Shown here piece after piece: positions 8,670-55,419 of a DNA stretch of 64,000 nucleotides. Location: the NCBI GenBank assembly GCA_016712345.1, contig JADJRH010000002.1:200466-264465 (forward strand), in the 5' to 3' direction. Each line of letters opens with the position of its first letter. The first letter of the stretch is position 1. Both the position numbers and the translations under genes were made by a program. The notes under the pieces were generated by a model, which did not search any database, had not been told where the DNA came from, and was given only the letters and a program-made list of their open reading frames with translations. Source of the DNA: Polyangiaceae bacterium. GTDB taxonomy: Bacteria; Myxococcota_A; Polyangia; Polyangiales; Polyangiaceae.

Positions 8670-8681
8670 GGCCCGACCTTA

Positions 8682-9431
8682 TCACGTGTCGTGGCCGGCT
8701 CGTTCAGCGAGTCGCACGTCGGTTTCAAGCCCGGTGAGGGCGGCTGTGTAACCGTCGCGTGCCGCTGTGCGCATTTCCATGAGAAGAGCGATTCGATGCA
8801 GGCGCGTTTCGGCGAGATCCGCCCGCGCCATCGCGTCGCGAACCACTTGAACTTGGCCTTGCCTGAGTTTGGTGGCGAGCGATCCAACGGCGATTGCCGC
8901 GATGAGGAGCACAACGAGCCCGATTCCGAGGAGGAGCGCAACGGCAAGTCCGCTGCCTTCACCTGCGAAAAGCGCTCGAAACGCGGCGATTGCGGCGAGC
9001 ACAACTCCGCCGATGAGGAGCAAAAGTGAACTGATGACACCGAGTCTTTCAGTCCACGCGGCGCGCGCGAGTTGGCGCATGGCGACGTTGCGCCAAAAGT
9101 CGGCTTCGCTGTCGAGGCGTTTGGCGAGCGATGCGAGAGCGTCGTCGGTGGACAGCTCCGGCAAGTCGGCTTGGTGAAGCAACTCAGCGGGGATGCGCGC
9201 TTCATCTCCGGCATCGGCGCTGAGCGCATCACCCACTTTTCCAAGGCCCGAACGAACGCGATTGCCAACGGCGGTCGCCACCGGCTTCACACCGGCGGCG
9301 GCCTTTTCTCCAAGTTCGGCGGCCGTGGAGCGCGCGCCTTGGAGCGCTTTTTTGGCATTGTGTACACTTGATTTTTCGTCGTCCGAGTCGGCGATTGGTG
9401 ACTTGCCCCAAGTGCTTTGTTTTTCGCTCAT
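8682..9431 (-). CDS. hypothetical membrane protein (two central TM helices)
   Basis: ATG at 9431, 3 nt after the dehydrogenase stop. Hydrophobic segments are GVISSLLLLIGGVVLAAIAAF and LAVALLLGIGLVVLLIAAIAV. Confidence 0.55.
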   Translation of the reverse strand: MSEKQSTWGKSPIADSDDEKSSVHNAKKALQGARSTAAELGEKAAAGVKPVATAVGNRVRSGLGKVGDALSADAGDEARIPAELLHQADLPELSTDDALASLAKRLDSEADFWRNVAMRQLARAAWTERLGVISSLLLLIGGVVLAAIAAFRALFAGEGSGLAVALLLGIGLVVLLIAAIAVGSLATKLRQGQVQVVRDAMARADLAETRLHRIALLMEMRTAARDGYTAALTGLETDVRLAERAGHDT

Positions 9432-10728: not shown

Positions 10729-12582
10729 ATGCGGACCAAAATCATTCCGAGCGCACTGTTCCTGACCGCTCTCGCAGCGGTCGGATGCGGTGACGGCGGG
10801 GAGAGTTCCACGGGAGGAACCACCTCCACGACCCCGTCCAAACCACCCACCGTTGTCGATATTGTTGTCGACGCCAATCGCGATGGGAAACTCGATCCGG
10901 CCGATCCCGCCGATCAAGACAAAGAAAACGAATGGAGCGTCGACAGCGGCGCGTCGTTTTTGGCAAACCTCGATGACGACGACGCGGACAAGTTTCGCGA
11001 CGTAGACGACCAGATCATCAACGGGCCGGATGATGAACTCGACCTGGCGAAGATGCAGCTCGTCGCGTGGCCCGACGCTCCCGACGGTGCGCTTGGTGTA
11101 CTCCATATCGATCCGATGAGCGCCCAGAACATTCGCCTCTGGAAAAAGGGGCTCGACGGCGCTTGGTGGCTCGTCGGTGGCAACGTCGGTCCCTGCAACG
11201 AAGTGGATCCGGCGTGCACGGTGACACCCGACGTAACGTTTCCAATCGAAGAAGTGCGCGCGGGGCTCACGCTCGGGATCGAAGCGCGTTTCTTCCGTCG
11301 CTCACTTGCGCCTGAGGCGTGGACGGGCATTGTGCAGCTCGGCTATCAGGTAAACGACAAAGACGGTGCGCCGATCACCGACGACAACATTCCCGATGGG
11401 CTTGATCAGGCCAAAATTCGCGTTGCCCCGTGGATGTTGTTTGGCAACCTTTCTCCTTTTGATCGCGTTTGGTCCAACAACGTAATGCCGGCATTTGTGT
11501 CGGGTCTTTCAACGCTGTCGACGGAAGCGGGCGTTACCTACAAGAAGATCACCAACTGGCAGGATCACTGGACTCAAGACTATTTCCAAACGGGGTACAC
11601 AACGATCCCGGTTGAAAACGGCGCCGTTCAAGGCATGCGCATCGCCAACGCAAGGCCGTGGGGTCGCTGCGACTCGCCTTCGTGTTGGCCGATCAACTGG
11701 CTCAAAAAAGGGTATTTGTCGCCCGGAAACGGTGTGATCGAGATCTACAACAAGCCCAATACGGGTTCGACGTACGACTCGCATGGCAACCACGATCTGC
11801 TGCCTCCGTATGAAAACGGAGAATCAAAATATCCCTTTGGTCGCATCGCAATCGGCTCAGGTGTACTCAAAGAAACCAAAGATTTTTACGCTGCGCAGGA
11901 GGTTCAAGGCCCGCCGATCATCGTGAAAACGTCGTGGCTCTACGTGGGTCACATCGACGAAGTATTCAGTTATGTGCCCGCGAACACGCCGCGCGGGTGG
12001 AAGCTTTTGGTAGGTTCACCCAAGCTCGCAAAGTCCATGCTTGAGGCGGCTCAAGCGGCCGGACACGGCGCGGTGACCATGTTTAAAGGGCAAAAGTGGT
12101 ACACCGAAAATGGCAGTCTCATAGACGCCGAAGTTTCAATTGACGAGGTGCTCGCCAATCAAGATCTGCTTGCTGCGTCGCAAGAAGCGCAAGGCGAGAT
12201 CGACGACATGATTGCCCAACTAAAAGAAGAGGTGGGTCTGGCGGACGACGAGATCGTCGAAATGCCGTATCTGCTCCAAGACCTCTTTGGGCAGAAGGTC
12301 GCCTTTAACCCGGGCACGGCCAACATGCTTGTTGTGGCCGACCACTTGGGCATTCCCAAACCGTGGGGCCCCGTTATCGACGGTGCCGACATTTTCGAAA
12401 CCGATCTTGAAGAGCGCCTTGGAGCACCGGGCCAAAACCTCGGATCCGACGGCAACGGTCTTATCGTTCACTTCATCGACGACTGGGAGTGGTACCACGC
12501 GCTCGACGGTGAGGTGCATTGCGGCTCCAACGTGGATAGCGTGCCGCCCGCGGATCAAACTTGGTGGAAGGTGTTGAAATGA
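10729..12582 (+). CDS. eukaryote-type protein-arginine deiminase (PAD, PF03068-like) with lipoprotein signal
   Basis: MRTKIIPSALFLTALAAVGCGD carries a lipobox. Matches to PAD active-site blocks are WTQDYFQTGY, ..SWLYVGHIDEVFSYVPANTPRGWKLLVGSPK.., and the C-terminal ..DDWEWYHALDGEVHCGSN with the catalytic Cys. Confidence 0.88.
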   Translation: MRTKIIPSALFLTALAAVGCGDGGESSTGGTTSTTPSKPPTVVDIVVDANRDGKLDPADPADQDKENEWSVDSGASFLANLDDDDADKFRDVDDQIINGPDDELDLAKMQLVAWPDAPDGALGVLHIDPMSAQNIRLWKKGLDGAWWLVGGNVGPCNEVDPACTVTPDVTFPIEEVRAGLTLGIEARFFRRSLAPEAWTGIVQLGYQVNDKDGAPITDDNIPDGLDQAKIRVAPWMLFGNLSPFDRVWSNNVMPAFVSGLSTLSTEAGVTYKKITNWQDHWTQDYFQTGYTTIPVENGAVQGMRIANARPWGRCDSPSCWPINWLKKGYLSPGNGVIEIYNKPNTGSTYDSHGNHDLLPPYENGESKYPFGRIAIGSGVLKETKDFYAAQEVQGPPIIVKTSWLYVGHIDEVFSYVPANTPRGWKLLVGSPKLAKSMLEAAQAAGHGAVTMFKGQKWYTENGSLIDAEVSIDEVLANQDLLAASQEAQGEIDDMIAQLKEEVGLADDEIVEMPYLLQDLFGQKVAFNPGTANMLVVADHLGIPKPWGPVIDGADIFETDLEERLGAPGQNLGSDGNGLIVHFIDDWEWYHALDGEVHCGSNVDSVPPADQTWWKVLK

Positions 12583-13552: not shown

Positions 13553-13828
13553 TCAGCCCCAATCCTGATCAGTTAAGACAAGAAAGCCTTCTCTCTGTGA
13601 GGTTTGGCGGCTCCTGCCGCCTGGTAGCTACCTGCCGACGGCCCCGCCGAATTCACGTTTTCGTCGCGGCTGCATTCGCAGGAAACACGTTATGGAGAAG
13701 GCTTTCGCGCCGCGCTTTTCGCTTTCTCGCTCGGCAGCGGGCAAGGGTGTCCGAAACGTCGCGACGACCCTGACTCCGGGCTTCGCTGAAACGTTTCGAC
13801 TGCTTAAGATCCGACCTATGAACCCGGA

Positions 13829-15983: not shown

Positions 15984-16637
15984 CTACAGCATGAAACTTA
16001 CGCCGACGGTCACGAACGGAATGCCGAGGCGCATGGTGAGCGTGATCTTGTCGCGGAAGTGGAAGCGCCCACCCACCTCGAACATCGGCTCAACGAAGAT
16101 GGCGTCGTAGCCGCGATCCCCTACGAAAAACCCGTTACTGTGCGGCACAAATCCAACTTCGGCGAACACGCTCCACTTCTTGTGCAAAAAGAAGTTCCAC
16201 TGTGCGCCGATGGGAAACCAAAACGAATATTCGTCGGGATAACAATATCCGCAGTTGGTAATATCGAGCCCAAACGTGATGCCGATGGTGTTGTTGAGCT
16301 TGGGAATCACCGGGTCGACAATTTCAATCGTGGCGCGAAAACCAACGCCCGCGTTGAAGTAGTAGCGATTGAGATCGCGCCCGTATCGAAACGTATTTCC
16401 CCACGGTGACAGTGTCCCGTGCGGTTCCAACTCAACCCGGTAGTCGGGGTGGTCACTTGGATTGCGAATGATCATTTGCGCGGCGGCTTCACTCGCCGAG
16501 AACAACGCAACACCGGCGGCGGCCGACCCAAGCAGTACAGCGACTCGACGTTGGTAGGTTCGCATGAGCAATGTTCCTATCGCGACATCGCGGCGCAAAG
16601 CAACCGCGATGGTTGCCCTGATAGTGCCGGCGCGCAT
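15984..16637 (-). CDS. hypothetical outer-membrane beta-barrel-like protein
   Basis: Signal peptide ..LLGSAAAGVALFSASEAAAQ. Aromatic-rich alternating strands with a C-terminal ..GVSFML. Confidence 0.5.
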   Translation of the reverse strand: MRAGTIRATIAVALRRDVAIGTLLMRTYQRRVAVLLGSAAAGVALFSASEAAAQMIIRNPSDHPDYRVELEPHGTLSPWGNTFRYGRDLNRYYFNAGVGFRATIEIVDPVIPKLNNTIGITFGLDITNCGYCYPDEYSFWFPIGAQWNFFLHKKWSVFAEVGFVPHSNGFFVGDRGYDAIFVEPMFEVGGRFHFRDKITLTMRLGIPFVTVGVSFML

Positions 16638-16793
16638 GATTGAAAGGTCGCGAATTTGGGAGGCTTAGTTATTTGCGCACGAAAAGCGCGCGACATGCAC
16701 AGTGCTTGAACCGGGCGGCGCTACGTCTGCCCACGCAACCGCAATGTGTACACCATCTGCGAGGCGACAACGGCGGGACTTGGCTCTGTGATC

Positions 16794-17993
16794 TTATTCA
16801 ACGCGGGCACACCCATCTTGCTCAAATGCCAAAATCCGCGCCCGACCAACTATCCCGCCCTGAACTTGCCGAAAACGTTGCTCATACACCCGTTCATACA
16901 GCTTGGCTTGGCCGTCGCCTTTGAGCGGGATTGCCTTGGGAATGATCCCCGCGATTCGAAACGGGCATACCCACGTTTTTGGATTTTCTGTATTGGAAAA
17001 AACAATGCGGGCCAAAAACCCTATTTCAGTGGCCAAGTGCTCTCGATGTGTACGCATTAGAAAATTACCAATGCTATAAAAAATGGGCTTGCCTTTGTAC
17101 ACTTCAATCCCCTGCGAAAGATGGGGGTGGTGCCCAATCACCGCATCGGCCCCGGCGTCAATCGCCGCGTGGTGTAGGTCAATCGCGCGCTGAAGAGGCA
17201 CGCTCACATATTCTTCCCCTCCATGGTAACTTACCACCACGGGGGCTCCGTTGCCGGCTGTTTTAGCTGCCTTTACTGCCGAGCTGACTGCCTCTTTACC
17301 GGCCTCCGCCACGTAATCTTTGGCTGCGTGAACCTTGAGTGCGCCTTGGTTCCATATATCTGTAAACGCCAAAATGCCCAGCTTAAACCCGTTTACTTCT
17401 ACCCATGCGGGCGAATAAGCCTGCTCCCGATTTCTACCCGCTCCGGCATATTTCACCCCCGCCCGCTCCAGATTTTCAAGCGTTTCTAAAAAGGCCCGCT
17501 GCCCATAATCCCACATGTGATTGTTCGCGAGCGACACCACACCCACCTTGCCAAGTTGCAGCGCCCTCGCTCCACCGGGCGGACCTGTAAACACCAGCTT
17601 TTGGGTAGGTGATTGAGTTTCCCCTTTTTGGTCAGACAATTGACTTTCTAAATTGACAAATCTCACGTCCGCCGTGGCCAGGAGTTCTGCCACCGACTCA
17701 AACGGGTTAAAGTCGGGATTTTTTAAAATCTCCTGCCCAATCGATCTACCCATGCAAACGTCGCCGCCGAAAATAACAGAAGCCGAGGAGGCGGCCGGCG
17801 GTGCAAGGTTGCTTTCAGCGGTTGAGGAAGCCGTGGGTACAACCGCAGCGCTCGTTTCTCCACGTTGGCCATGGGTAGACAAGGCGCTCGACGACAACGT
17901 CTCAGACGTTTCATCCGTGGCAGATGAGCCCGAAGAACACCCCAGAACAAGGGCCACACCGACGGTCCAAATTCTCCAACCGGTGAAACGCAT
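16794..17993 (-). CDS. CapA family (PGA_cap metallophosphatase-like) lipoprotein
   Basis: Lipobox VALVLGCSSG. CapA-type blocks are VIFGGDVCMGR, VNLESQLS, LANNHMWDYG, VVSYHGGEEY and GADAVIGHHPH. Confidence 0.75.
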   Translation of the reverse strand: MRFTGWRIWTVGVALVLGCSSGSSATDETSETLSSSALSTHGQRGETSAAVVPTASSTAESNLAPPAASSASVIFGGDVCMGRSIGQEILKNPDFNPFESVAELLATADVRFVNLESQLSDQKGETQSPTQKLVFTGPPGGARALQLGKVGVVSLANNHMWDYGQRAFLETLENLERAGVKYAGAGRNREQAYSPAWVEVNGFKLGILAFTDIWNQGALKVHAAKDYVAEAGKEAVSSAVKAAKTAGNGAPVVVSYHGGEEYVSVPLQRAIDLHHAAIDAGADAVIGHHPHLSQGIEVYKGKPIFYSIGNFLMRTHREHLATEIGFLARIVFSNTENPKTWVCPFRIAGIIPKAIPLKGDGQAKLYERVYEQRFRQVQGGIVGRARILAFEQDGCARVE

Positions 17994-18047
17994 ACCCCAA
18001 CTCTACCACGAAATCCGTTCTGCGCCCTACGGCGTTTAACCCCGCCG

Positions 18048-19010
18048 TTACTTTGGCTCTTCGGTGGGGGCGCACGTGGAAACGCCGGCGCCAACGATGT
18101 CAAACCCCACGTTGGTATTGATGGGGGTGGTGATTTGGGAGGTGGGCTCGTATTTGTAAATGCCTGTGCCGCTCATGATGTAAAACGAACCTCCCCAAAA
18201 GGCGAAGGCCCACGACAGGCCGCTTGGAATTTGAGTGAGGTCAGAATAGGTAATGACCTTTGCGTCGGCCTTGTTGATCTCCGCGAGCCGAATGGGGACA
18301 TCTTGAAAGTACCCAAACAGCCGCGCGTCGCCCGTGCCTGTCAGTTCTGCCGCTTTGCCCGCCAAAACGTCGTAGTCGGCAATAGGAGTAAGCGTCAGGG
18401 TGGTTTGATCGATGGTTGCGAGGCCGGACGCTCCGGGTTGGTTATACGCACCCGAAACGTACAACGTTTCCATGTCAGACCCCGCCGCGTCGGAAACAAA
18501 TCCCATTCCAAACGTGCAAAATCCGGACTGGCAGGGTAGAAACCCGGTGGGTGTGCAGTTGAGCGTTTTGGTATCTACGTGGTAGATTACGCCGTTTGCA
18601 AAGAGTACCCACGCTCTTCCTTTTCTATCCACCGACATAGAAAACGTGGTGTTGAATTCTTCTCCCGGGCAGTTGAGTGTGCCCAGCACCGTGAGATCCT
18701 GAGTTTGCGGAGCAAAGCGAGCAAACTGCTTATCCTGACCCAATATGTACACACTGCCTTTGGTGTCGTTGTCGCAGTCGCCCGGGCCCGCCGCGCCGGT
18801 TCCAGAACTTACCGACAGGTCAATTCCACCGTCGCCGCCTTTTCCGGTGCTCATACTTCCCCCCAACCCGCCCGTGGGGAGACTTCCCGCCGAACCGCCG
18901 CTCCCGCCGACAGTTGGATCACCGGTCGCCGCCGTGCGCCCCGCGCTGCACGAAAGCGCACCAAAAACAGCCACAACAGTGCATACCGCCCGCAGATTAA
19001 GGTGAAGCAT
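18048..19010 (-). CDS. hypothetical lipoprotein with Gly-rich N-terminal linker
   Basis: ATG at 19010. The signal AVFGALSCSAG is followed by GGSGGSAGSLPTGGLGGS. Confidence 0.55.
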   Translation of the reverse strand: MLHLNLRAVCTVVAVFGALSCSAGRTAATGDPTVGGSGGSAGSLPTGGLGGSMSTGKGGDGGIDLSVSSGTGAAGPGDCDNDTKGSVYILGQDKQFARFAPQTQDLTVLGTLNCPGEEFNTTFSMSVDRKGRAWVLFANGVIYHVDTKTLNCTPTGFLPCQSGFCTFGMGFVSDAAGSDMETLYVSGAYNQPGASGLATIDQTTLTLTPIADYDVLAGKAAELTGTGDARLFGYFQDVPIRLAEINKADAKVITYSDLTQIPSGLSWAFAFWGGSFYIMSGTGIYKYEPTSQITTPINTNVGFDIVGAGVSTCAPTEEPK

Positions 19011-19173: not shown

Positions 19174-22014
19174 ATGAACGTGCGAACGTCGTTTCCTTTA
19201 GGCAGCAATCAACGCGCGGCGAACAAGCCACCCTTGCGGCTGACTTGGTTCGCGCCGTGGGTGTTTCTGATCATCCTTTCAATCACACAAGGCGCCTGCA
19301 CCTGCATCACAAGCGAGGCGCCGCCCCCGCGCGAAATCGTCGCATGTGTACCCCAACACGAAACGCGCGCTACCAAACTTCCAACCTCCCGCGCAAGTGA
19401 AACCGCCGCCGCCGGTAGCCTGCAAGGGACATTCTCTGTCACCCCTACCGGTGAAGCTTCTTTTGTCGTTCCTATACCCACGCCACCGGGTAGAGCCGGG
19501 ATAGAGCCACGGGTAGCCCTCGCCTATAACAGCGCCGAGGGCGACGGTGTAGCGGGTCAAGGCTTTTCGCTCTCGGGTTCATCGGCGATCACGCGTTGCC
19601 CTAAGAACATGGCCCAAGATGGGGAGATCTGCGCCGTCCGGTATGACGCCGAGGATAAACTCTGTTTGGATGGTCAACCGCTTGTACAAGTCGCCGAAGA
19701 AACCGGACAACTGGAATACCGGACCTTACCCGACACCTTTGTGAAAGTGGTAGGTCATGCGCCGATCGCAGGCGTTCCGCAATGGTTTGAAGTGTTCGCT
19801 CCGAATGGCGTGATCACCGAGTATGGTAGAAGCGCCTCAACAAGACCGCGCGGACCCAACAATTCTACCCGCGCTTGGTTAGCCGCCAAAACCCACGACG
19901 GCCGCGGCAATGCGTTGATCTACGGGTATTGTTTCGCCAATGCCGAAGAGTACACCGCTGAGTACGCATTGGATGAAATTCGGTATACCCAATTTGACGG
20001 GACACCCGCCCTTGAACCGACACGGGCCGTCAAGTTTGTGTACGCGCAACGCAAGCCCGACCAAACGAGGCTTTCTTTTTCGCATGGAATGGTCGTTCAA
20101 CGCTCTTTACAACTCAACGAGATCCAAATGGTCGGCCCCGGTGAAGAATTGGTCACATGGGTGGACCTGGAGTACACAAAGAGTGAAGCCACCGGCCGCA
20201 CCTTACTCACAAAAATGGAAGAATGCGCTGCGGATGGAGTCTGTAAACCCGTTACGCTTTTTTCATACTCCACCCATGAAAAAGGCTTTATCGATCAATC
20301 TACCGAACTCGATTCGCCCACGTCCCGCAAGGCAAGCCCAATGCTTGTGGACATGGACGGCGATGGGCTTGACGATGTGTTAATCCCTGACACGCATCCC
20401 GCCCTTTCTACCCCTGCAAACCCGATCACAGAATGGCGGCTTTTCCACAATGGCACCTTGCCCGGTGAAAGTGTCACCTTTTCAGATCTGACCATTCCTT
20501 ACGTTCAAGATGACGTGTTTGTGGCCGATCCCAGCGGTCCCGCCGACCCTACCCAACTACAGCCCGAACTTGGAACGGTGCTTGATTACAACCAAGACGG
20601 CCGAAAAGATATCCTTCTCCATGACATCTACCAACAGGGGGCAACATGGAAGATTTTGATCGCCAAACCCGCCCCTCAAGCCGGACCCAACACCCCCACG
20701 TTTGAGATGGTAGATACAGGGATCGCTCGCCCCTTTGGCATCGGCGCCCAACCTGTACCACCTGCGTTGTCTACCAAAAACGGCTCCATGCACTTGGCCG
20801 ACGTCGACGGCAATCGCGTGGCCGACTTGATCCAATGCACCGATCACAGTGACTCGCTCACCGGTGACCCTTCTAAACCTGAATGGAAGGTGCACCGATG
20901 GTTGCCCGCGCACGGGGGTATACCTCTTGGATTTGACCCGGAAGGAGAAGTGATCGAAGCGCTCGAATTATACCGATGCGACGTCGACCTGAAAACGGTT
21001 GACATCGACGGAGACGGAAAAACAAATCTTCTTGTCGTGCCGCTTGAAGTGGCAGGTGATGGATCTGAAATTCAGGGCGTAAATTACGAAGCGCTTTCCC
21101 GCAACGAAAACGGCACGTGGGAAATTCGCGAAACAAACCTAACCATTCCCGCCCCAGGTGGACGCGTTGTATTTCTCGATGTGAACGGGGATGGTCTACC
21201 CGATGCAGTAGAGTCAGGTTTTTCGAACGGCGGGCTTTATACACTCCTCAACACCGGCAACGGCTTTGCACCCTCGCAGCTCAGTTTGGATGGTGGCGGT
21301 TACGGCGGGCAGGATGCGCTTTTCCGCTTTGCAACCCCAATCGACGCCAACGGAGACGGCAGGCAAGATCTTTTGGTGCCCATGTTCGCCGATGGACTCG
21401 GCGCCAGTGGTGAACCGCCCGAGTGGGTGTTTCTCATCGCACAACCGGGCATCCAATCGACGGGCACGTTCACCATCGAACCATCGGGCATTCCCTTTAA
21501 GCCGCTTTTGGGTGAAGCGGTCACTCTCGCCGATCCTCACGGGCCGCGCATCGGCGATCTGAACGGCGATGGAGCTTCGGATGTTGCCATTTGGTTGAGT
21601 GGCAAGCTCCACATTTTCGAAAATCAAGCGCGCGATCAAGACCTGTTGATCGGTGTACACCAAGGAACCAACCCGCATGATCCTACCGATCCTGAATATG
21701 TGCCCGACGTGGCCATTTCGTATGGCCATCTGACAGACTCTTCTATCACGACCAACACCGATCCAGATGCTTTGTCCAATGAGAGCGCGCTCTACCTTTC
21801 GCAATGGGACAAGGCCAATGGGTGCACCTACCCGCGACGGTGCAGCGTTGGCGCGCGCCGCGTTGTTTCGGAGTATCAGACGTTCGACGGGGTAGATGCT
21901 GGGCGCCGGTATAGCTTGCGGTACCGCGATGGACGGATATTCGTTGCACAGGGCTTTTTTGGGGTTCGGTGCGCGGTTTCTGACCGACCTCGACACCGGA
22001 GCGATCACCGCTGA
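19174..22014 (+). CDS. RHS/Tc-toxin BC-like protein, N-terminal ORF (SpvB domain + FG-GAP/VCBS propeller); probably one gene with 21896-25774
   Basis: Signal peptide ..WVFLIILSITQGAC. The SpvB/TcB N-terminal block is GTFSVTPTGEASFVVPIPTPPGRAGIEPRVALAYNS..GQGFSLSG. Repeated D.DGDG..D motifs are DMDGDGLDDVL, DVDGNRVADLI, DIDGDGKTNLL, DVNGDGLPDAV and DANGDGRQDLL. Confidence 0.85.
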   Translation: MNVRTSFPLGSNQRAANKPPLRLTWFAPWVFLIILSITQGACTCITSEAPPPREIVACVPQHETRATKLPTSRASETAAAGSLQGTFSVTPTGEASFVVPIPTPPGRAGIEPRVALAYNSAEGDGVAGQGFSLSGSSAITRCPKNMAQDGEICAVRYDAEDKLCLDGQPLVQVAEETGQLEYRTLPDTFVKVVGHAPIAGVPQWFEVFAPNGVITEYGRSASTRPRGPNNSTRAWLAAKTHDGRGNALIYGYCFANAEEYTAEYALDEIRYTQFDGTPALEPTRAVKFVYAQRKPDQTRLSFSHGMVVQRSLQLNEIQMVGPGEELVTWVDLEYTKSEATGRTLLTKMEECAADGVCKPVTLFSYSTHEKGFIDQSTELDSPTSRKASPMLVDMDGDGLDDVLIPDTHPALSTPANPITEWRLFHNGTLPGESVTFSDLTIPYVQDDVFVADPSGPADPTQLQPELGTVLDYNQDGRKDILLHDIYQQGATWKILIAKPAPQAGPNTPTFEMVDTGIARPFGIGAQPVPPALSTKNGSMHLADVDGNRVADLIQCTDHSDSLTGDPSKPEWKVHRWLPAHGGIPLGFDPEGEVIEALELYRCDVDLKTVDIDGDGKTNLLVVPLEVAGDGSEIQGVNYEALSRNENGTWEIRETNLTIPAPGGRVVFLDVNGDGLPDAVESGFSNGGLYTLLNTGNGFAPSQLSLDGGGYGGQDALFRFATPIDANGDGRQDLLVPMFADGLGASGEPPEWVFLIAQPGIQSTGTFTIEPSGIPFKPLLGEAVTLADPHGPRIGDLNGDGASDVAIWLSGKLHIFENQARDQDLLIGVHQGTNPHDPTDPEYVPDVAISYGHLTDSSITTNTDPDALSNESALYLSQWDKANGCTYPRRCSVGARRVVSEYQTFDGVDAGRRYSLRYRDGRIFVAQGFFGVRCAVSDRPRHRSDHR

Positions 22015-25000
22015 CTTTTTTGATAACCAGTCGTTTGACGCCACGTTTCAGACCTACCCATTTGCAAAGGTCCGATCGGCCCAATGGCGATCTACACCCG
22101 GTTGGGAAGGGTTGCCCGATCCTCAAAAGGTAGAACTGTCGTTTCTAAACACGACACGCCTTGTCGTGCCCACGAACAACAGCAAAACCTATTTCACGCT
22201 CACCACAGAAAACCGTTTGCGCCGAGCGCAAGGCGAATTTGACGCTACGGCGCAAGGGTCGAGTTTGCTGGAGTACACCCGAAGCGTTGAAAATGGTGCG
22301 GCAAACGTCCCCATCTTGCGCGACACAACCGCCAAGGTCACCAACTTCGACGACGTTGGAAATGTGCTTTCTGAAACGTCCGCGACGGTAGATGTCAACC
22401 TGACAACCACCATCGAGCGTACGGTAAAAAACGACGTTGATACCTGGAATCTTGGCCAAGTCACGCAGCAAAAAGAGTGCAGCGCGGCGAATGGGTTGAC
22501 GCAGTGTCGATCCATCCAACGATCGTTTACCCCTTACGGGGAGGTTGCGGGCGAAACGGTACAGGATGAAGCCGATCCCACAACGCGGATTGAGGTCAGT
22601 TACGGGCGCGACCATCATGGAAATGTGACCTCCCTCAGCGCGAAAGATCCCAAAGGCGCCGAACGCACCTCCACGATTACGTACGATTCAACTGGGCTCT
22701 ACCCTCGCGAACATACCAACCCGGCCGGCCATGTCACACGCACCGAGTTTGATCCACGGCTTGGCGTCGTGACCCGAATCACTGACGCAAATGGGCTTGT
22801 GACTGAGCATCAGGTAGATGGTTTCGGGCGCCTGACATTGAAAAAGCGCCCCGATGGTACAAGTACAAGTTTCACCATTACTCGCACGAGAGACGGGGCA
22901 CACAACCAGAACGCCTGGCGCATTCGCGAACGGACGATCGAAACAGGAGGGCAGGACGAAGAGATCGAACGCGACGCTTTCGGTCGAGTGGTTCAACATT
23001 GGTGGTATGGTCCGACACCGGAAGGTCAAACCAACGCGCCGCGGATCACGCAACGATTCGAATATGATCGGTTGACGGGTAGAGTCGCCCGAAGGTCAAT
23101 CCCCATGCGCGAGGATGCCGCGCCCAACAAAGTCGAATGGGATGAGTTTGTCACCGACGGGTTAGGCCGCGAGGTCAAACGCACCACGGCTTTCGGCGCC
23201 ACCACGGAAACGGAGTTTGATGGACTGACCATCAAGACGACCGATCCGCTTGGAAACGTGAGCATCGCAGAAAACGACGCCTTGGGTAGAAAGATCGCCG
23301 TCACCGACGCCGCCAACGGCGTTACGGTGTACACCTACGGGCCCTTTGGAAAGTTAACCAAAGTCACCGGACCCGACGGTGCAACCACGCTCACCACATT
23401 CGATGCGATGGGTAGACCGGTTGAAACGGTAGACCCCGACAAGGGAGGCACTCAACAAACCTACAACGCCTTTGGTGAGCTGGTTTCATTGGTAGACGCC
23501 CTCGGAAATGAAACCACCTTTGAACGTGATCCGCTCGGTCGAGTGACGAAGCGCCTCGACGATTTGGGCGCTACCACCGAAATCACAACGTGGACATTTG
23601 ACACGGCCCCGAACGGAAAAGGGAAGATCCACCATGTAAAGAGTATCGATGCAGAAAAAACGTACACCTATGATAAATTGGGAAGGGTAGAAAGTGTCAG
23701 CCTGGAGGTGACGGGGAACGGGCCCGCGATAACAGGAAAGATCGGTTATGATCTCTTCGGCCGCGTCGAAACCCTGACCTACCCAACGGCAAAGAGCAGC
23801 GTACCTTTTGCAGTCGTCCAAGACTACGACGCGCACGGGTTTACCCGTAAGGTGCGCGACCGAAACATCGATCTCACCTATTGGCAGTTGACCGGGGTGG
23901 ACGACGCCGGCAGGTTTGCGCAGGAACAAATGGGCAATGGAGTTTCTACTACCCATCGAACCTATTTCGCCGCGCAGCAAAGGCTAAGAAACATCACCAC
24001 AGAAAACGCGGCCGGTTTGGTGCAAAGTTTGGAGTTTGAATGGGATGCTCGCCTAAACCTGAAAAGCCGCACCGATGATTTGCAGCCACAACACACCACC
24101 GAACGATTCAGGTACGACGCCCTTGAGCGGCTAACGTGCTCGTATTTCTCGACGCAAGAAGATGTTTCGGCGCCTTGCGATTGGAGTTACCAATACGCGC
24201 CGAACGGCAACTTGACATACAAGTCCGACGTGGGCACGCTGGAGTATAACGATCCTACCCATCCTCACGGTGCCACCGCGGCCGGAGGGGCAGCATACCA
24301 ATACGACGCCACCGGCAACCAAACGGCTCGCCCCGTGGGGGTGAAGGTTGCGTACACCGCGTTTGATCTACCCAGAACGATCACCCAACCGAGCGGAGTG
24401 ATCTCGTTTGGATATGACGGCGACCAAAAACGTGTACGCAAGACAACCGCAACGCACGAAACGCTTTATTTCGCCGACCTGTATGAACGGATGAAAGACG
24501 CCGCGAACGCGCTCACCGAGCGATTTTATGTGCGCTCGCCTGAACGCGTGATCGCGATTGTCACCCGCGGAGGCAATCAACCGGGCACAATGTATGTGCA
24601 CGCCGACCACTTGGGATCGGTGGATGTACTCACCGATGCCGATGGGAAGGTCACCGAGCGGCGCAGTTACGACGCCTTTGGCCAAAGGCGAAATCCCGAG
24701 TGGGGCGCCCCAATACCCGCGAGCTTTCCTGACTCGACATCGCTTGGTTATACCGGCCACGAAGATGATGGAGAGATCGGTTTAGTCAACATGAAAGGAC
24801 GGATGTTTGATCCCAAGTTGGGTAGGTTTTTGAGCACCGACCCGATTGTGCAGGATTGGACATTTAGCCAAGCGTGGAACCCTTACAGCTACGTTTTCAA
24901 TAATCCGTTGACCTATACCGATCCAAGCGGATTTGACGGCGAACCCAAGCGTGAGCCGGGCGTGGTGTACATGCCGGAGGCAAATATCAAGGTGCCAGTC

Positions 25001-25774
25001 CCGACGAACGGGACCGCGCCACCCAAGGAGGACAAGCCCAAAGAAGAGAAGAAACACGGCGTGGGTGAAGGCGAAAACGATGTCAACACCACCGGGTTGA
25101 TCACCCCATTGGTTGACGCGGACGAAGAAGGGGAAGACGATCAACCGTGGTATCACCATCCCATCGCGCATGGGATCATCGGATTTGGCGCGGGGCTTGG
25201 ACTTGGCTATGTCCCCTTTGCTGGAATAACGGAGGAAATTCTAGAAAAAGCGCACGTACTGAATCCAGTCTCCCCGACGTATCACTATGCCAAGTCGGCG
25301 GGCATGAGCATTGGAGGGCTGATCGCCATGCTCCAGGGCTTTAATGAAATTGCGGGAGCTGTGATGCTCGCTCCCGAAATCGGTCCAGGCGGAACCGTGG
25401 CCATTTCTAACATGGCATTGGCCCAAGTGTCAGGTGGTGCACTGAATGTATACGCCGGCACGCAAGCGATGATGTCCGGGCCGAACGGACGGCAGAGCGC
25501 TGGGCCGTCCGCCACTCGCGGTGAAACTCCGGCCGCGCGTGCGGGCCGCGAAGCTCACAAGAATTGGAATCCAGGAAACGGTTTTGAAAAGGAGTTTCGA
25601 TTGCCGAGCGGTAAACGACCGGATGCGGTAAACTTCGAAACGAAAGAGGTGTTGGAATTGAAACCAAACAACCCGGAGGCAATTCGAAAAGGCGAAGCTC
25701 AACTCCGGGAATATGTTGATGAGTTGAATAAGCATTTTGGCGGTGGATTCACCGGTCGCGTAGTTACGTATTAA
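21896..25774 (+). CDS. RHS/YD-repeat protein, C-terminal ORF: RHS shell + core + PD-(D/E)xK (Tox-REase-like) nuclease tip
   Basis: Many YD repeats are present (..YDSTGLYPREHTNPAGHVTRTEFDPRLG.., ..TYGPFGKLTKVTGPDGATT..). The RHS core ends at ..PLTYTDPSGF. The tip ..FRLPSGKRPDAVNFETKEVLELKPNN.. carries PD...ExK. This ORF sits in the +1 frame relative to 19174-22014. Confidence 0.85.
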   Translation: MLGAGIACGTAMDGYSLHRAFLGFGARFLTDLDTGAITADFFDNQSFDATFQTYPFAKVRSAQWRSTPGWEGLPDPQKVELSFLNTTRLVVPTNNSKTYFTLTTENRLRRAQGEFDATAQGSSLLEYTRSVENGAANVPILRDTTAKVTNFDDVGNVLSETSATVDVNLTTTIERTVKNDVDTWNLGQVTQQKECSAANGLTQCRSIQRSFTPYGEVAGETVQDEADPTTRIEVSYGRDHHGNVTSLSAKDPKGAERTSTITYDSTGLYPREHTNPAGHVTRTEFDPRLGVVTRITDANGLVTEHQVDGFGRLTLKKRPDGTSTSFTITRTRDGAHNQNAWRIRERTIETGGQDEEIERDAFGRVVQHWWYGPTPEGQTNAPRITQRFEYDRLTGRVARRSIPMREDAAPNKVEWDEFVTDGLGREVKRTTAFGATTETEFDGLTIKTTDPLGNVSIAENDALGRKIAVTDAANGVTVYTYGPFGKLTKVTGPDGATTLTTFDAMGRPVETVDPDKGGTQQTYNAFGELVSLVDALGNETTFERDPLGRVTKRLDDLGATTEITTWTFDTAPNGKGKIHHVKSIDAEKTYTYDKLGRVESVSLEVTGNGPAITGKIGYDLFGRVETLTYPTAKSSVPFAVVQDYDAHGFTRKVRDRNIDLTYWQLTGVDDAGRFAQEQMGNGVSTTHRTYFAAQQRLRNITTENAAGLVQSLEFEWDARLNLKSRTDDLQPQHTTERFRYDALERLTCSYFSTQEDVSAPCDWSYQYAPNGNLTYKSDVGTLEYNDPTHPHGATAAGGAAYQYDATGNQTARPVGVKVAYTAFDLPRTITQPSGVISFGYDGDQKRVRKTTATHETLYFADLYERMKDAANALTERFYVRSPERVIAIVTRGGNQPGTMYVHADHLGSVDVLTDADGKVTERRSYDAFGQRRNPEWGAPIPASFPDSTSLGYTGHEDDGEIGLVNMKGRMFDPKLGRFLSTDPIVQDWTFSQAWNPYSYVFNNPLTYTDPSGFDGEPKREPGVVYMPEANIKVPVPTNGTAPPKEDKPKEEKKHGVGEGENDVNTTGLITPLVDADEEGEDDQPWYHHPIAHGIIGFGAGLGLGYVPFAGITEEILEKAHVLNPVSPTYHYAKSAGMSIGGLIAMLQGFNEIAGAVMLAPEIGPGGTVAISNMALAQVSGGALNVYAGTQAMMSGPNGRQSAGPSATRGETPAARAGREAHKNWNPGNGFEKEFRLPSGKRPDAVNFETKEVLELKPNNPEAIRKGEAQLREYVDELNKHFGGGFTGRVVTY
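24446..24955 (+). repeat. RHS-core homology block, inverted copy of 4926-5436
   Basis: See 4926-5436. Protein level: THETLYFADLYERMKDAANALTERFYV..FDGEPKREP versus THETLYFADLYERVKDAANALTERFYV..FDGEPKREP. Confidence 0.85.
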
Positions 25775-49262: not shown

Positions 49263-51173
49263 ATGGCCACGTCCGGTCCGATGAAGGCGCAACCCACGCG
49301 CCGAAAGATCCATGTTTTGCCGGACGATCTCGCAAATCAGATCGCCGCGGGTGAAGTGGTTGAACGGCCGTCGAGCATCATCAAAGAGCTGGTTGAAAAT
49401 TCGCTCGACGCGGGCGCTCGCAAAGTGCGCGTTGACATAGAGGGCGGTGGGATCTCGCTCGCGCGTGTTGCGGACGACGGCTCGGGCATGGATCGTCGGG
49501 ACGCGGAGCTTTGTTTGTTGCGACACGCCACGAGCAAAATCGAAACGCTCGCCGATCTCGCGGGTGTACAGAGTTTTGGTTTCAGGGGCGAGGCGTTGCC
49601 GAGCATTGCATCGGTTTCGCGCCTCGTGCTGCAAACCAGACGTGAGAGTGATCCCGAAGGCACCGAAGTTCGAGTTGAAGGCGGCGGTGAGCGCGTGACA
49701 TTGCCGTGCGGTGTTTCGGTGGGCACCGTTGTGGAGGTGCGCGATCTGTTTTTCAACGTTCCCGCGCGTCGAAAATTTTTGCGAGCCGCCGCCACTGAAA
49801 GCGCTCACGTCACCGATGTTGTGCAGGCGATGGCGCTTGGCGCACCGGCCACATCGATCGTGCTTTCGCGCGACGGTCGCGTGGCTCGTGAATGGCTTCG
49901 CACCACATCGCGTGAAGAGCGCGCACGCCAAATATTGAGCGGTGAAGAACTCGCGGCGTGTCGCGGCGCCCGCGGTCCGCTCAGTGTTGAAGCCTTCTTG
50001 TCGAGGCCCGAACGAGCACGTTCCGGCGCTGTGGGTCTCACGCTTCTCGTGAACGGTCGCGTTGTGAAAGATCGAAGCCTCGCGCGATCGGTGGCGCTCG
50101 CGTACGGCAGCGTTTTGGAACCGGGGCGCTACCCGATTGGGGTTGTGTACATCGATCTCCCGCCCGAGTTGGTTGACGTGAATGTACACCCGCAAAAAGC
50201 CGAGGTGCGTTTTGCCGATGGGCGCGCCGCGTCCGACGCTGTGTATCGCATCTTGGCCGATGCGCTCACGCATGCTTTTGGACTGCCGATCTCGCGGTTG
50301 CCGGGCGCTCACCACCACAAGCCCAAAACCGCCGAACTGGCACCCTCAGAGTCGTGGTCATGGGAGTCGGGCGCAGCTGTCGGGCCCACTGTCACCCCTC
50401 CGTCGGTTGAAAACAGGCAATATTCAGGTCCGCCGATTGACGCTCCCGAAGTGGCAGACTTGCACTTGGAAAAGAGCGGTTCTTTTGACGGTGGGCCGGA
50501 AGCGCCGATGCGGGTTCAACCGGTGCCGTATCTACCCATTCAGGTGCCTGAGCCGCACCCCATTGAGGTTGTAAACACCGTCGATCAGCGCACTCCATTT
50601 GATGCGCTCAACTACCTGGGTCAACTGCGGGCAACGTTTCTGCTTTGCGAGGGGCCCGACGGCCTCTACATCCTTGACCAACACGCGGCGGCGGAAAGGG
50701 TAACCTACCATCGACTTCGAACGGCCTACAACCAAAAGGCGGTGGCCACTCAGAAGCTGCTTTTCCCGGTGATCGTTGGCGTTTCGGCGCGTGAAGTGGC
50801 CCTTGTTGAAGAAGGCGAAGAAGCTGTCCGAGCCGCCGGATTTGACCTGCGTCCGGCCGGACCTACCCATGTGGCCGTTCATTCAATTCCCCAACTGCTT
50901 GTGCGTGCGTCGCCTGAAAAATTGGTTCGCGACCTTCTCGCCGAAGTGAGCCACGAAGGCCAACGTGCCTTTTCAGGTGCCATTGATTTGGCGCTCGCAA
51001 CAATGGCTTGTCACGGCTCTATTCGGGCGGGAGAGCGGGTGTCTCCCGACGAAGCGAAAGCCCTGTTGAGAGCGCTTGATGAGGTGGATTTTGCGGGTCA
51101 CTGTCCTCACGGAAGGCCCGTTGTTCACCGGGTCAGCTACGGTGAGTTGGAATTGCGTGTTGGGCGCAGGTAG
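49263..51173 (+). CDS. mutL: DNA mismatch repair protein MutL
   Basis: From the ATG at 49263: ..KIHVLPDDLANQIAAGEVVERPSSIIKELVENSLDAGA..DDGSGM..FGFRGEALPSI... C-terminus ..QHAAAERVTY..CPHGRPV... Confidence 0.9.
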   Translation: MATSGPMKAQPTRRKIHVLPDDLANQIAAGEVVERPSSIIKELVENSLDAGARKVRVDIEGGGISLARVADDGSGMDRRDAELCLLRHATSKIETLADLAGVQSFGFRGEALPSIASVSRLVLQTRRESDPEGTEVRVEGGGERVTLPCGVSVGTVVEVRDLFFNVPARRKFLRAAATESAHVTDVVQAMALGAPATSIVLSRDGRVAREWLRTTSREERARQILSGEELAACRGARGPLSVEAFLSRPERARSGAVGLTLLVNGRVVKDRSLARSVALAYGSVLEPGRYPIGVVYIDLPPELVDVNVHPQKAEVRFADGRAASDAVYRILADALTHAFGLPISRLPGAHHHKPKTAELAPSESWSWESGAAVGPTVTPPSVENRQYSGPPIDAPEVADLHLEKSGSFDGGPEAPMRVQPVPYLPIQVPEPHPIEVVNTVDQRTPFDALNYLGQLRATFLLCEGPDGLYILDQHAAAERVTYHRLRTAYNQKAVATQKLLFPVIVGVSAREVALVEEGEEAVRAAGFDLRPAGPTHVAVHSIPQLLVRASPEKLVRDLLAEVSHEGQRAFSGAIDLALATMACHGSIRAGERVSPDEAKALLRALDEVDFAGHCPHGRPVVHRVSYGELELRVGRR

Positions 51174-51240
51174 AGCTGTCGAGCACATTTGCCAACGTGG
51201 GGAACGAAACGCGCGCCGTTCAGGTTTGTTACGTGCCGTT

Positions 51241-52086
51241 TCAGATTTTTACGTAGTGGATGGGTAGATCGCGAATCCACGTGCGCTGTCGGCGAACAAA
51301 TACCCGCGTTGCGCGCACAATGGTAGGTGCCAATTCGCTCTCGGGGATTTGACCGCGTATGTAACTCAGCACTTCACGGTAGCCCACGGACTGCATGGCT
51401 CTCGTGTTTTCATAACCCAGATCAACAAGGTGTTTCACCTCATCGATCCAGCCTGTTTGAAGCCAATGGGTGGTTCGTTTGGCAATGCGCTCGTCGAGTT
51501 CTGCGTCGGCCCTGTCGGCGGCGATAAAGCGCGCTTTGTACTTTTGCTCCCGAAACCCGTGCTCGCTTTGCAACTCCGTCATTGTTTTGCCCGACACGGC
51601 AAACACTTCTAGAGCGCGACTGACGCGCACAAAATCGTTGGGCGACAAGCGTGCTGCGGCCACGGGGTCGATCAACTGGAGTTGGGCGTGCAACGCTGCG
51701 CGCCCCTGAGACTCGGCAATGAGAGTGTGCTCGGCCCGCACGGCGGGGTTTGCTCCGGGCATGGGGGCGAGCCCCCACACAAGGGCTTTGACCCACAAGA
51801 AAGAACCGCCGCATACAATAGGTATTCTGTTGCGACCGCGAATATCGGAGACCGCCTGTTCTGCCATTTCAGCGTAGCGGCTCGCTTCAAGCTGAACGCT
51901 CGGGTCAACGACACTCAGCAGATGATGAGGCGCGCGGGCGAGTTCTTCGCCGGTTGGTTTTCCTGAGCCGATGTCAAAGTGCGTGTACACCTGCACGCTG
52001 TCGGCATTAACGATTTCTCCACCGAACTTTTGCGCCAACAAGATGGCCAGTTCTGTTTTGCCGCTCGCTGTTGGCCCCACAACCAC
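51241..52086 (-). CDS. miaA: tRNA dimethylallyltransferase MiaA
   Basis: Blocks are GPTASGKTELAI, IVNADSVQVYTHFDIGSGKPT, PHHLL and IVCGGSFLWVKAL. GTG start with a very short N-terminus. Confidence 0.9.
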   Translation of the reverse strand: MVVGPTASGKTELAILLAQKFGGEIVNADSVQVYTHFDIGSGKPTGEELARAPHHLLSVVDPSVQLEASRYAEMAEQAVSDIRGRNRIPIVCGGSFLWVKALVWGLAPMPGANPAVRAEHTLIAESQGRAALHAQLQLIDPVAAARLSPNDFVRVSRALEVFAVSGKTMTELQSEHGFREQKYKARFIAADRADAELDERIAKRTTHWLQTGWIDEVKHLVDLGYENTRAMQSVGYREVLSYIRGQIPESELAPTIVRATRVFVRRQRTWIRDLPIHYVKI

Positions 52087-54330: not shown

Positions 54331-55050
54331 ATGCACACAACCACACGATGGCTTTCGTTCTGCGCTCTGTTTTCCCTTGCGCCGCTGGCCGCGGTGGCGT
54401 GCGGAGACGGTACGCCGGACGCAAACACTCCACCCCAACCAACGGCTGAACCCACGGCGAGTGCGTCGGCCGGTCCCACAGCGGCGCCCACCGCTGTTCC
54501 CACGGCGGAGCCCACGGCCACGCCAACCGCCGAGCCAACAGCGTCCGCAAGTGCGTCGGCACCTGTCGACAAGCCCAAGTCGGGTCGCCCGCCGGTGCTC
54601 CTGGCAGATGCCAAGTCCATCACCGACACATTCGGTTTTTCGCCGGGTGCCAAGCTTGAACTTGGTGACAAAGAAATTGCCACTCTTCGCATTCCCGAAG
54701 GGGCTCTTTCGCAAGCCACTGTTGTCACATTCGCTATCGACACCAAGTGCAAAACCACAGGTGTCGTTACCGGCAAACTCTACAAGATCACACCTACCAT
54801 CCCACCCGCAGCAACTCCCGCGTCGGTTCCTTCAAACAACGGCGCCCCGTACACGCTGATCCTCCCCGGAGTTAAAAAGCGTGATTTGAACCTGGCAATT
54901 GGCACGTACGCCAAAGATGCAAAAGGAAACGAGGCAATTGTTTGGAAGATTCTCGGGCCCGCCAAAGTAGACGAGTCGGGGATTTTTGAATTTCACCTCG
55001 ATACTCTCCCGGACGGTTGTGTACACCTGACAAACAAGCCGCCCACCTGA
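54331..55050 (+). CDS. hypothetical lipoprotein with PTAEPTA-type tandem low-complexity repeats
   Basis: Lipobox ..LAPLAAVACGDG, followed by PTAEPTASASAGPTAAPTAVPTAEPTATPTAEPTASASASAP. Confidence 0.6.
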   Translation: MHTTTRWLSFCALFSLAPLAAVACGDGTPDANTPPQPTAEPTASASAGPTAAPTAVPTAEPTATPTAEPTASASASAPVDKPKSGRPPVLLADAKSITDTFGFSPGAKLELGDKEIATLRIPEGALSQATVVTFAIDTKCKTTGVVTGKLYKITPTIPPAATPASVPSNNGAPYTLILPGVKKRDLNLAIGTYAKDAKGNEAIVWKILGPAKVDESGIFEFHLDTLPDGCVHLTNKPPT

Positions 55051-55145
55051 CCTCCTGGGTCTCGTGGGTAGCTGGCAGCCCCAGAGCGACGGCTGAAGCG
55101 TCACGCCAAGACCTGAAGCGCCTGGATGCCTGTGACGTCTCTTTC

Positions 55146-55321
55146 ACCACGGAATCACGGAGAACACAGAACACACGGAGTTTTTTTGTTTCTTGGGCTG
55201 CAATGGGTACACATCATCCGTGATCCCAACCTGACAGGGGATCGGTCAGGTGGTGCGAGACGATTGCAGCCTAAAATACAAAAAACTCCGTGGATCTCCG
55301 TGATCTCCGTGCCTCTGTGTT
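55146..55321. repeat. palindromic intergenic element with CACGGAG iteron arrays (copy B)
   Basis: cacCACGGAatCACGGAGaaCACAGAacaCACGGAGtttttttgtttcttGGGCTGCAATggg ...variable loop... cgATTGCAGCCtaaaatacaaaaaaCTCCGTGgatCTCCGTGatCTCCGTGcCTCTGTGttg. It shares arms with 7741-7892, but the central loop differs. Confidence 0.75.
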
Positions 55322-55419
55322 GATTACGAAGTATCAGGAATCGAGACGTCACAGGTCATTGTGGGCGAGCTTAGCGCTGCGGAGCGCGTTTCCCGGCCGC
55401 TTTGTGAGATGCTTGGCGC

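Follow-up and report, generated by a model that had tools for sequence, protein, structure and literature searches.

A nested palindrome of CACGGAG heptads in a Polyangiaceae genome is probably a dispensable, mobile or unstable intergenic repeat

We studied an intergenic palindrome in a 64-kb stretch of DNA (the window), which is chromosomal DNA from a metagenome-assembled genome of a Polyangiaceae bacterium, a soil myxobacterium. The palindrome (copy B) takes up most of a 369-bp gap between two + strand genes, a lipoprotein gene and a glycoside-hydrolase-like (GH) gene, so an earlier note on this DNA was right to place it between two co-directional genes. A second palindrome of the same design (copy A) lies 47 kb away. 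The element is non-coding and dispensable, and it is not conserved with the genes that flank it. We think that copy B is probably a selfish or neutral intergenic repeat that is either mobile or recombinationally unstable. The features of copy B and its neighbors are as follows (coordinates are within the window).

54331-55050, + strand: lipoprotein gene with a lipobox signal, upstream of copy B
55093-55132: outer left module, a direct repeat of two 20-nt tandem units starting CTGAAGCG; aligns with the 20-nt repeats left of copy A
55129-55141: left arm of the outer inverted repeat, CCTGTGACGTCTC; 13 nt, 100% complementary to 55343-55355, and paired in the minimum-free-energy fold of 55080-55370
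55148-55180, + strand: left heptad array, with CACGGAA at 55148, CACGGAG at 55156, CACAGAA at 55165 and CACGGAG at 55174; the period is 8-10 nt and TTTCAC precedes it
55181-55194: T-rich spacer, TTTTTTTGTTTCTT; this spacer plus the inner arm is 87% complementary to 55263-55285
55195-55206: left arm of the inner palindrome, GGGCTGCAATGG; identical in copy A
55207-55253: variable loop with its own small palindrome (CCTGAC at 55230, GTCAGG at 55250); cannot be aligned to the loop of copy A
55254-55271, + strand: conserved right core, TGCGAGACGATTGCAGCC; the counterpart in copy A is TGCGAGCCGATTGCAGCC
55263-55271: right inner arm, ATTGCAGCC, within the right core
55272-55285: A-rich spacer, TAAAATACAAAAAA
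55286-55319, - strand: right heptad array, with CTCCGTG at 55286, 55296 and 55305 and CTCTGTG at 55313, followed by TTGAT
55343-55355: right arm of the outer inverted repeat, GAGACGTCACAGG; pairs with 55129-55141
55420-56856, + strand: GH gene with a MYXO-CTERM-like tail (its homologs are so named), downstream of copy B

The features around copy A are similar.

5736-7622, - strand: gene for a protein with an IgGFc-binding domain; it starts at 7622, beyond copy A
7680-7951: full extent of copy A (the core described earlier is 7741-7892)
7680-7688 and 7943-7951: outer inverted repeat, GGTAACTGA and TCAGTTACC, which encloses the arrays
7685-7728: 20-nt repeats
7743-7776: left array
7791-7802: GGGCTGCAATGG
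7833-7850: right core, TGCGAGCCGATTGCAGCC
7866-7890: right array
7962-8669, - strand: conserved lipoprotein gene whose stop codon adjoins copy A

(An open reading frame (ORF) at 7896-8633 on the + strand, 4 nt past the right array of copy A, is probably spurious, because the lipoprotein gene on the opposite strand has about 1,900 homologs.)

All of the features that the earlier note listed for copy B are present at 55146-55321, base for base, and a precise alignment agrees that the architecture matches copy A. Those limits were too narrow, however: with the outer repeat (55129-55141 and 55343-55355), the palindrome and the homology to copy A extend over about 55085-55370. In both copies, the layout is four CACGGAG units, a T-rich spacer, GGGCTGCAATGG, a variable loop, TGCGAGnCGATTGCAGCC, an A-rich spacer, and three or four CTCCGTG units. 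Both also have two or three 20-nt tandem units beginning with CTGAARCG on the left (7685-7728 and 55093-55132). The two copies share about 66% identity. They retain the heptads, GGGCTGCAATGG, and TGCGAGnCGATTGCAGCC, while the loops and most of the spacers have diverged. The arms are thus conserved and the loop is variable, as had been proposed, but the center is only partly variable, because TGCGAGnCGATTGCAGCC to the right of the loop is conserved. The TGCGAG part of the right core has no mirror image on the left, so the element has an orientation. When we compared two 1.2-kb regions with blastn, copy A aligned to copy B on both the plus strand (E = 1e-17) and the minus strand (E = 1e-23), and the two elements account for 10 of the 16 exact matches to CACGGAG in the 64 kb. 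The pattern shared by copies A and B is real and is beyond chance.

The palindromic element is 180-280 bp in size, and its inner arms are 38-55 bp apart. Both copies begin 11-35 nt past the upstream stop codon and end about 55 nt ahead of the next start codon. Copies A and B point the same way on the + strand, and the gene pairs around them are transcribed oppositely, so relative to transcription the two copies are oppositely oriented.

Heptad arrays of this kind are also found in viral or phage-like contigs. A scan of IMG/VR for three CTCCGTG units, with 1-4 nt between them, gave at least 120 loci. (The counts that follow are for the matches listed.) Of 190 distinct arrays, 180 have exactly three units. 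The spacers are 1-2 nt and are purine-rich on the CACGGAG strand, a TT(A/C)AC head lies ahead of the array, and CACAGAG is a common variant of the unit. The arrays are solo or paired. All 37 pairs that lie within 200 nt have a CACGGAG array, a center, and then a CTCCGTG array; none are reversed. Nesting is frequent: the pairs are combined with inverted arrays of other short units, such as CACGAAGG (in contigs L104 and L132), CGCAGAT (L087 and L102), ACGGATT (L167), or AATTTGNAATTT (L124). In some phage contigs, there are as many as three paired elements per 8-12 kb, and in L124, paired elements occupy the intervals between genes for the phage tail (DUF2460, baseplate hub, NlpC/P60, and Phage-tail_3). 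Array pairs that are 0.5-1.3 kb apart enclose only small phage ORFs, judging by the ORF listing alone. No array of three or more units was present in a control set of 513 kb from unrelated genomic loci.

The same design is present in a cultured species of the Gemmatimonadota. A consensus query found it in the megaplasmids of Gemmatirosa kalamazoonensis, at 10 and 8 places, including three nested copies within 40 kb of plasmid 1. These copies have outer CCGCAGAGG arrays, inner arrays of three CACGGAGGA units, and a conserved 22-nt loop that occurs in both orientations. A scan of metagenomes for ATTGCAGCC-N10-20-CTCCGTGNNNCTCCGTG found one locus (L073; 41% GC), in which GCTGCAAT...ATTGCAGCC adjoins a CTCCGTG array that is followed by a CACGGAG array; this arrangement differs from the window copies. 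The window copies share several traits with the class: at least three units, a period of 8-10 nt, the polarity, an intergenic location, and nesting. Compared to the common viral form, they stand out by their four units and spacers of up to 3 nt, by their head (TTCAC or TTCAA), and by the T-rich tracts that follow the array.

We also considered whether the arrays are promoter or leader signals that are tied to the direction of the gene, and rejected this. In crude ORF contexts of the matches listed, the downstream gene is co-directional for 58 arrays and opposed for 46, and both orientations occur within one operon. The copies in Gemmatirosa, which sit between convergent genes and between divergent genes, do not fit either.

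Two other features of the array-bearing contigs are recorded here. Arrays of a unit of about 10 nt (GCCCGTTAGN, in four or five copies) are directly beside CACGGAG arrays in L078, L079, L083, L097, and L116; the spacing between the two kinds of array differs between related contigs, with gaps of 30-230 nt. And in the phage-like contig L101, an ORF at 8280-9251 ends 5 nt ahead of a CACAGAG array and contains a YADD motif (read by eye), which suggests that it might encode a reverse transcriptase.

Modules of this class are gained and lost at orthologous intergenic sites, and this includes sites within the genus of the window organism. First, we found filled and empty sites in related viral contigs by matching the flanking sequences. 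L090 and L182 carry a 42-nt segment, bearing a solo array, that is missing from L080, L089, L108, and L135; the segment lies just past a terminator-like hairpin and has TCTTTT on both sides. L097 and L131 carry a 49-nt solo module that four relatives lack. In L108, L128, L093, and L174, a 125-nt paired element exactly fills the gap from a TAA stop codon to the next ATG, and L089 reads TAATATG at that place. Where L089 has a pair, L128, L174, and L183 have a solo array at the corresponding place. Lastly, a 245-nt nested module lies beside a solo array in L126 and L084 and not in L184.

Second, at the site of copy A (site A), the window has 249 nt (7714-7962) where a contig from the same genus (L210) has just 39 nt, and the flanking genes are 89-91% identical in DNA. 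The flank with the 20-nt repeats and a GTAGTCCGTCTTGAA remnant are kept in L210, and the arrays and the core are gone. Because L210 keeps the outer left 20-nt module while lacking the core, this stretch may be a module of its own, or a target, instead of belonging to the core.

Third, at the site of copy B (site B), another contig from the same genus (L201; 85-86% identical) has a different and shorter array (CAACAGAGGACACGGAGGATTTGGGTTTGTTG) right after the stop codon of the lipoprotein gene, and then the contig ends. In more distant relatives, a convergent gene lies 19-72 nt past the lipoprotein gene and there is no element. In a relative that has the GH gene next to a MazG-like gene, there is no element upstream of the GH gene. 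Together, these comparisons indicate that site B is a synteny breakpoint. Contigs from related assemblies end at or near the element. Presence/absence polymorphism is seen in the viral contigs, at site A (compared to L210), and at site B (compared to L201 and L074).

The element could instead have arisen in place. Template switching or snap-back synthesis might have made an inverted copy of a pre-existing single array and its flank, giving a long palindrome, and the relatives would then show the unduplicated or partly deleted state. At site A, the right-hand outer arm (20-nt repeats, ending in ...CTCAGTTACC) is the ordinary upstream sequence of the gene for the IgGFc-binding protein, and L210 keeps this arm without the core; the segment that is specific to the window starts with the complement of that arm (GGTAACTGA) and resembles its reverse complement. 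Also, the two arms of an element are more alike than arms of different elements are (13 matches in the spacers versus 7.1 +/- 2.2; 52 versus 40.5 in the units). Because of the start of the site A segment and the likeness of the arms, local inverted duplication and deletion of one arm are live alternatives to transposition. The pair in L089 that is a solo array in its relatives fits as well. But an origin in place leaves three things unexplained: the heptad and the inner core (GGGCTGCAATGG and TGCGAGnCGATTGCAGCC) that copies A and B have in common, 47 kb apart; the presence of the same heptad in several phyla; and the insertions of solo arrays at sites that are array-free in relatives. We consider an origin in place rather improbable.

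We then asked what is constrained within the element. The heptads are kept across phyla, only 13 of 44 mirrored spacers are complementary (about 70% are not), and degenerate units in one arm are uncompensated in the other arm. From this we infer that the constrained units are the heptads and not the base pairs. Together with the fixed number of units and the strict polarity, the conservation of the heptads speaks for a trans-acting factor that recognizes them and against selection for a hairpin as such. The proposal in the earlier note of a mobile or protein-recognized element fits the data: the heptads are kept while spacers vary, arrays occur in unrelated phyla, and orthologous sites are filled or empty.

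If a protein recognizes the heptads, copy B might be a regulatory or architectural DNA site, in which arrays on both sides of a palindrome are bound cooperatively and the A and T tracts act as bends. Models for this would be the operator or centromere arrays of ribbon-helix-helix proteins, or the arm-type and core att sites of tyrosine recombinases. The retained heptads, the 8-10 bp period, the fixed polarity, and the rule of three units would all be expected of such a site, and the spacers rich in T or A, like the conserved TGCGAGnCGATTGCAGCC core with its orientation, are compatible with a bound site. The size of roughly 180-270 bp is like that of attP-type sites. However, there is no gene nearby for a DNA-binding, partition, recombinase, or replication protein. 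(Pfam scans of about 40 ORFs in the window identified mutL, miaA, aspS, a Clp ATPase, a sigma-70 factor, Rhs toxins, and others, and no transposase, integrase, partition, or rep gene.) The two copies flank unrelated genes and are in opposite orientations relative to transcription; the core is missing from site A of the same-genus relative, whose flanking genes are intact; and members of the class can number three per 8-12 kb between the tail genes of a phage. For a recombinase site in particular, the inner arms are too far apart (38-55 bp, compared to 6-8 bp in recombinase cores). Overall, we rate a bound regulatory or architectural site as rather improbable. The earlier note had also called the repeats iterons. 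In the sense of a replication origin this is unsupported, because neither a rep gene nor origin features are present. More broadly, an iteron origin, par site, or att site would be expected to be single and to have its cognate rep, par, or integrase gene adjacent to it, and in the window we see two sites 47 kb apart and no such gene.

Another view is that the element acts as RNA: an intercistronic hairpin that is selected between these two genes as a terminator or insulator, as the earlier note suggested, or as a site that stabilizes or processes the 3' end of the mRNA. The placement of both copies between stop and start codons is suitable. The predicted hairpin is also very stable. The interval 55146-55321 has a predicted folding energy of -86.9 kcal/mol when treated as RNA (z = -9.4) and of -46.6 kcal/mol when treated as DNA (z = -8.6), and none of 200 shuffled sequences folded as stably; for 55080-55370, the energy is -135 kcal/mol (z = -8.3). 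And as a palindrome, it would fold on either strand. Nevertheless, we have several pieces of evidence against this view. An intrinsic terminator has a short GC-rich hairpin and then a U tract; in copy B, the T tracts are within the stem and not 3' of it. Neither element contains a consensus for a sigma-70 promoter or an intrinsic terminator. There is no terminator-like site on either strand of 54900-55600, and at site A there is one, at 7514-7530, which is outside the element and matches the expectation from shuffles. Because copies A and B are oppositely oriented relative to transcription, a role as terminator or insulator is not supported. Some members of the class are found within a co-directional operon of phage tail genes, and termination there would do harm. 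A plain hairpin would allow both polarities, yet not one of the 37 listed pairs is reversed. The conserved parts are the heptads and not the pairs, the element is not kept at orthologous sites, and no Rfam family matches it: Rfam 15 gave no match over the window at the gathering thresholds and none with E <= 5 over 54950-55500. We think that a selected hairpin is quite unlikely.

A small regulatory RNA is more doubtful still. The heptad CACGGAG contains the A-N-GGA motif and could titrate a protein of the CsrA/RsmA type, or GGAG and CCUCC could mimic Shine-Dalgarno and anti-Shine-Dalgarno sequences (CACGGAGG contains GGAGG). Also, forward arrays in viral contigs often have their last unit 4-12 nt ahead of an ATG, where it might be a ribosome-binding site. 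In the window, though, the GGA motifs are buried in a long stem rather than exposed in loops, and there is no consensus promoter or terminator. The arrays occur in both orientations relative to genes, and relatives dispense with the element. This explanation is very improbable.

Searches for a known family gave little. The window element had no similar DNA in collections of plasmids and phages (by blastn), and the class consensus had no match in the phage collection. Nor did we find this element described when we searched the literature for the heptad and for related terms. We found no curated family for the class. Among 12 array-rich loci, the sole Rfam match was Acido-Lenti-1 (L102, 3218-3263), which is away from the arrays. 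(This viral contig also has two nested heptad elements. The match scores 54 bits, with a gathering score of 37, and hints at a host from the Acidobacteria or the Lentisphaerae.)

Several candidate likenesses were rejected. A sigma-54 promoter reading of TGGTGCGAGACGATTGCA fails because the spacing from GG to GC is 12, not 10, and copy A lacks the GG. We took the likenesses to parS and metbox (TTTCAC...GTGAAA and AGACGTCT) to be coincidence. A scan of genome contigs for CACGGAG-N8-24-GGGCTGCAATGG gave 71 matches, which is about the chance estimate, and none has the architecture; two of these, on one Terrimicrobiaceae contig, are a duplicated coding segment. A viral scan for two heptads plus GCTGCAAT gave one match, which reads as coding and is probably due to chance.

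How would a selfish or neutral repeat of this kind work? The heptads are probably recognized by a trans-acting factor that is encoded elsewhere, either transposase-like or another nucleic-acid-binding protein. The element would persist as selfish or neutral DNA in the gap between stop and start codons. It might spread by transposition, or by local inverted duplication followed by deletion of palindromes. If transcription reads through from the upstream gene, then the transcript would fold into a long, imperfect hairpin, which could stabilize the end of the upstream mRNA or be cut by a double-strand RNase. Such effects on transcripts are probably secondary: a side effect and not conserved regulation of the two genes.

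Several observations weigh against a mobile or unstable repeat. Neither site A nor site B has a recognizable target-site duplication, and their boundaries are diffuse; within the class, the insertion with TCTTTT on both sides is the one case with flanking repeats, and the others have none. We saw only two copies, both within the 64-kb window, and a profile built from A and B found no further copies there. We found no autonomous parent element or associated enzyme among the roughly 40 window ORFs that were scanned or in the plasmid and phage collections. The difference between site A and L210 could be a deletion in L210 instead of an insertion in the window. Other Polyangiaceae (L072, L074-L076, L198, and L199; about 100 kb) have no arrays. 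And the form of the window copies differs from the viral one, so that their membership in the viral class by descent is suggested by the heptad, the period, the polarity, and the nesting.

A broader idea is that the triple heptad, TT(A/C)AC-(CACGGAG-R1-2)x3, is the recognition unit of horizontally spread machinery that seeds and stacks arrays in intergenic gaps. The 280-bp nested palindrome in the window would be a compound product of this machinery. It could involve micro-transposition or templated insertion of 35-50 nt modules, or else a widely shared nucleic-acid-binding protein, and its hosts would include Myxococcota, Gemmatimonadota, a lineage with 41% GC, and many phages from soil or freshwater. 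We view this as speculative, and possible rather than probable.

For annotation, copy B should not be labeled as a terminator, an origin, or a small RNA. The locus itself is ordinary spacer DNA, and the element marks a synteny breakpoint. The wider interest is in the class: arrays of a 7-nt word with a fixed size and a fixed polarity, which are polymorphic across phyla and phage-like contigs, point to an unrecognized mobile or recognition system that acts on very small DNA modules. Gemmatirosa kalamazoonensis KBS708 is named, fully sequenced, and bears the arrays, so if it can be grown, the question is experimentally testable.

We also noticed other features of the window. Units with a 20-nt period that contain CTGAAACG or CGTTTCAG are present in four intergenic regions (51196-51254, 13746-13800, 7685-7728, and 55093-55132), and CTGAARCG is enriched, with 16 sites versus about 7 expected (0 of 100 shuffles reached 16). 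At 51215-51254, there are two 20-nt units in the window and one in L201. A 23-nt tandem repeat (CACGCGGTAAAACAAGTCGGAGCG, 2.8 copies) lies at 56880-56946, in the convergent gap between the GH gene and a MazG-like gene. In L201 (283-1059) and L202 (5862-6614), a gene with a TIR_2 domain is beside miaA, while the gap between mutL and miaA in the window is only 68 bp (51173-51241); this is a presence/absence polymorphism of a possible defense gene. There are polymorphic-toxin loci at 19174-25774 and 4068-5552. In one of them, an SpvB/FG-GAP protein is followed by an RHS-repeat protein with a terminal Tox-REase-9 domain, and a second RHS protein in the window has an AHH nuclease domain at its end. 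Three adjoining genes at 28240-33244 encode an AAA_5 (MoxR-like) ATPase, a protein with a DUF2201 VWA-like metallopeptidase domain, and an 847-aa protein that bears the shoulder domain of the major vault protein. The gene at 10729-12582 encodes a protein of the protein-arginine deiminase family (E = 5e-77), which to our knowledge is uncommon in bacteria. Lastly, in the Polyangiaceae relative L199, a Cas4-Cas1 fusion gene and cas2 (16106-18218) are 5 kb from the homolog of the GH gene.

Finally, we compared the element to known systems. Arrays of heptamers have been described before. GGGAATC arrays in Xanthomonas are intergenic, and many converge in pairs, with one array on each strand, from which stem-loops or cruciforms could form (PMC4692102). 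TAACTGA arrays adjoin start codons in Beggiatoaceae, cyanobacteria, and Bacteroidetes (PMC4679880). Both papers cite the STRR heptamers of heterocystous cyanobacteria, and in them the function of the GGGAATC, TAACTGA, and STRR arrays is unresolved. Like these, the CACGGAG arrays are short arrays of one 7-nt word that are only intergenic, often beside start codons, and patchy across phyla. Unlike these, which are contiguous and vary in copy number as would be expected of slippage, the CACGGAG units are 1-3 nt apart and their number is fixed (three in 180 of the 190 listed arrays and four in the window). Variable spacers and a fixed number of units are not what a simple-sequence repeat that evolves by slippage would have. 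The TT(A/C)AC head, the strict polarity, the nesting, and (in the window) the unique inner palindrome are further differences.

REP sequences are imperfect palindromes of 20-40 nt with a GTAG or CGTC head that are mobilized by RAYT transposases (PMC3733652). Like the REP, BIME, and REPIN families (PMC3733652), our element is a non-coding extragenic palindrome that is found in either orientation, is a mosaic of modules, and at sites A and B shows no recognizable target-site duplication, and side effects on mRNA stability and termination have been proposed for both. However, the window element is 180-280 nt, its arms are heptad arrays, and its inner palindrome starts with GGGCTGCAAT; this palindrome (GGGCTGCAAT...ATTGCAGCC) has no GTAG or CGTC head. 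A REP/REPIN family would have a RAYT (Y1 transposase) gene in its genome and tens to hundreds of copies; we saw no RAYT gene among the approximately 40 window ORFs that were scanned, and there are just two copies in 64 kb.

Bacterial MITEs (miniature transposable elements with inverted repeats) whose interiors are modular or contain repeats include Correia/NEMIS, ERIC, pneumococcal BOX, and a MITE with a minisatellite from P. gingivalis (PMC4596501). They are small, non-autonomous, and intergenic, with terminal inverted symmetry, insertion polymorphism between strains, and possible co-transcription and folding into hairpins, and our element is alike in these respects. Its terminal inverted repeats are the inverted heptad arrays together with the outer inverted repeats. 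In contrast to MITEs, it has no consistent target-site duplication and no identifiable parent insertion sequence (there is no transposase in the window and no similar DNA in the plasmid and phage collections). Single CACGGAG arrays of 35-50 nt also behave as insertions, and the window copies are only about 66% identical.

In eukaryotes, Foldback transposons have long inverted arms that are made of tandem short units, and the type of unit changes from the outside to the inside. In architecture, these are the closest analog of the nested CACGGAG arrays (cf. PMC3169594). But they are eukaryotic, kilobase-scale, and associated with a transposase, so the link is in architecture only. Overall, the intergenic heptamer arrays are the closest phenomena that have been described, and REP/REPIN sequences and MITEs come closest in lifestyle.

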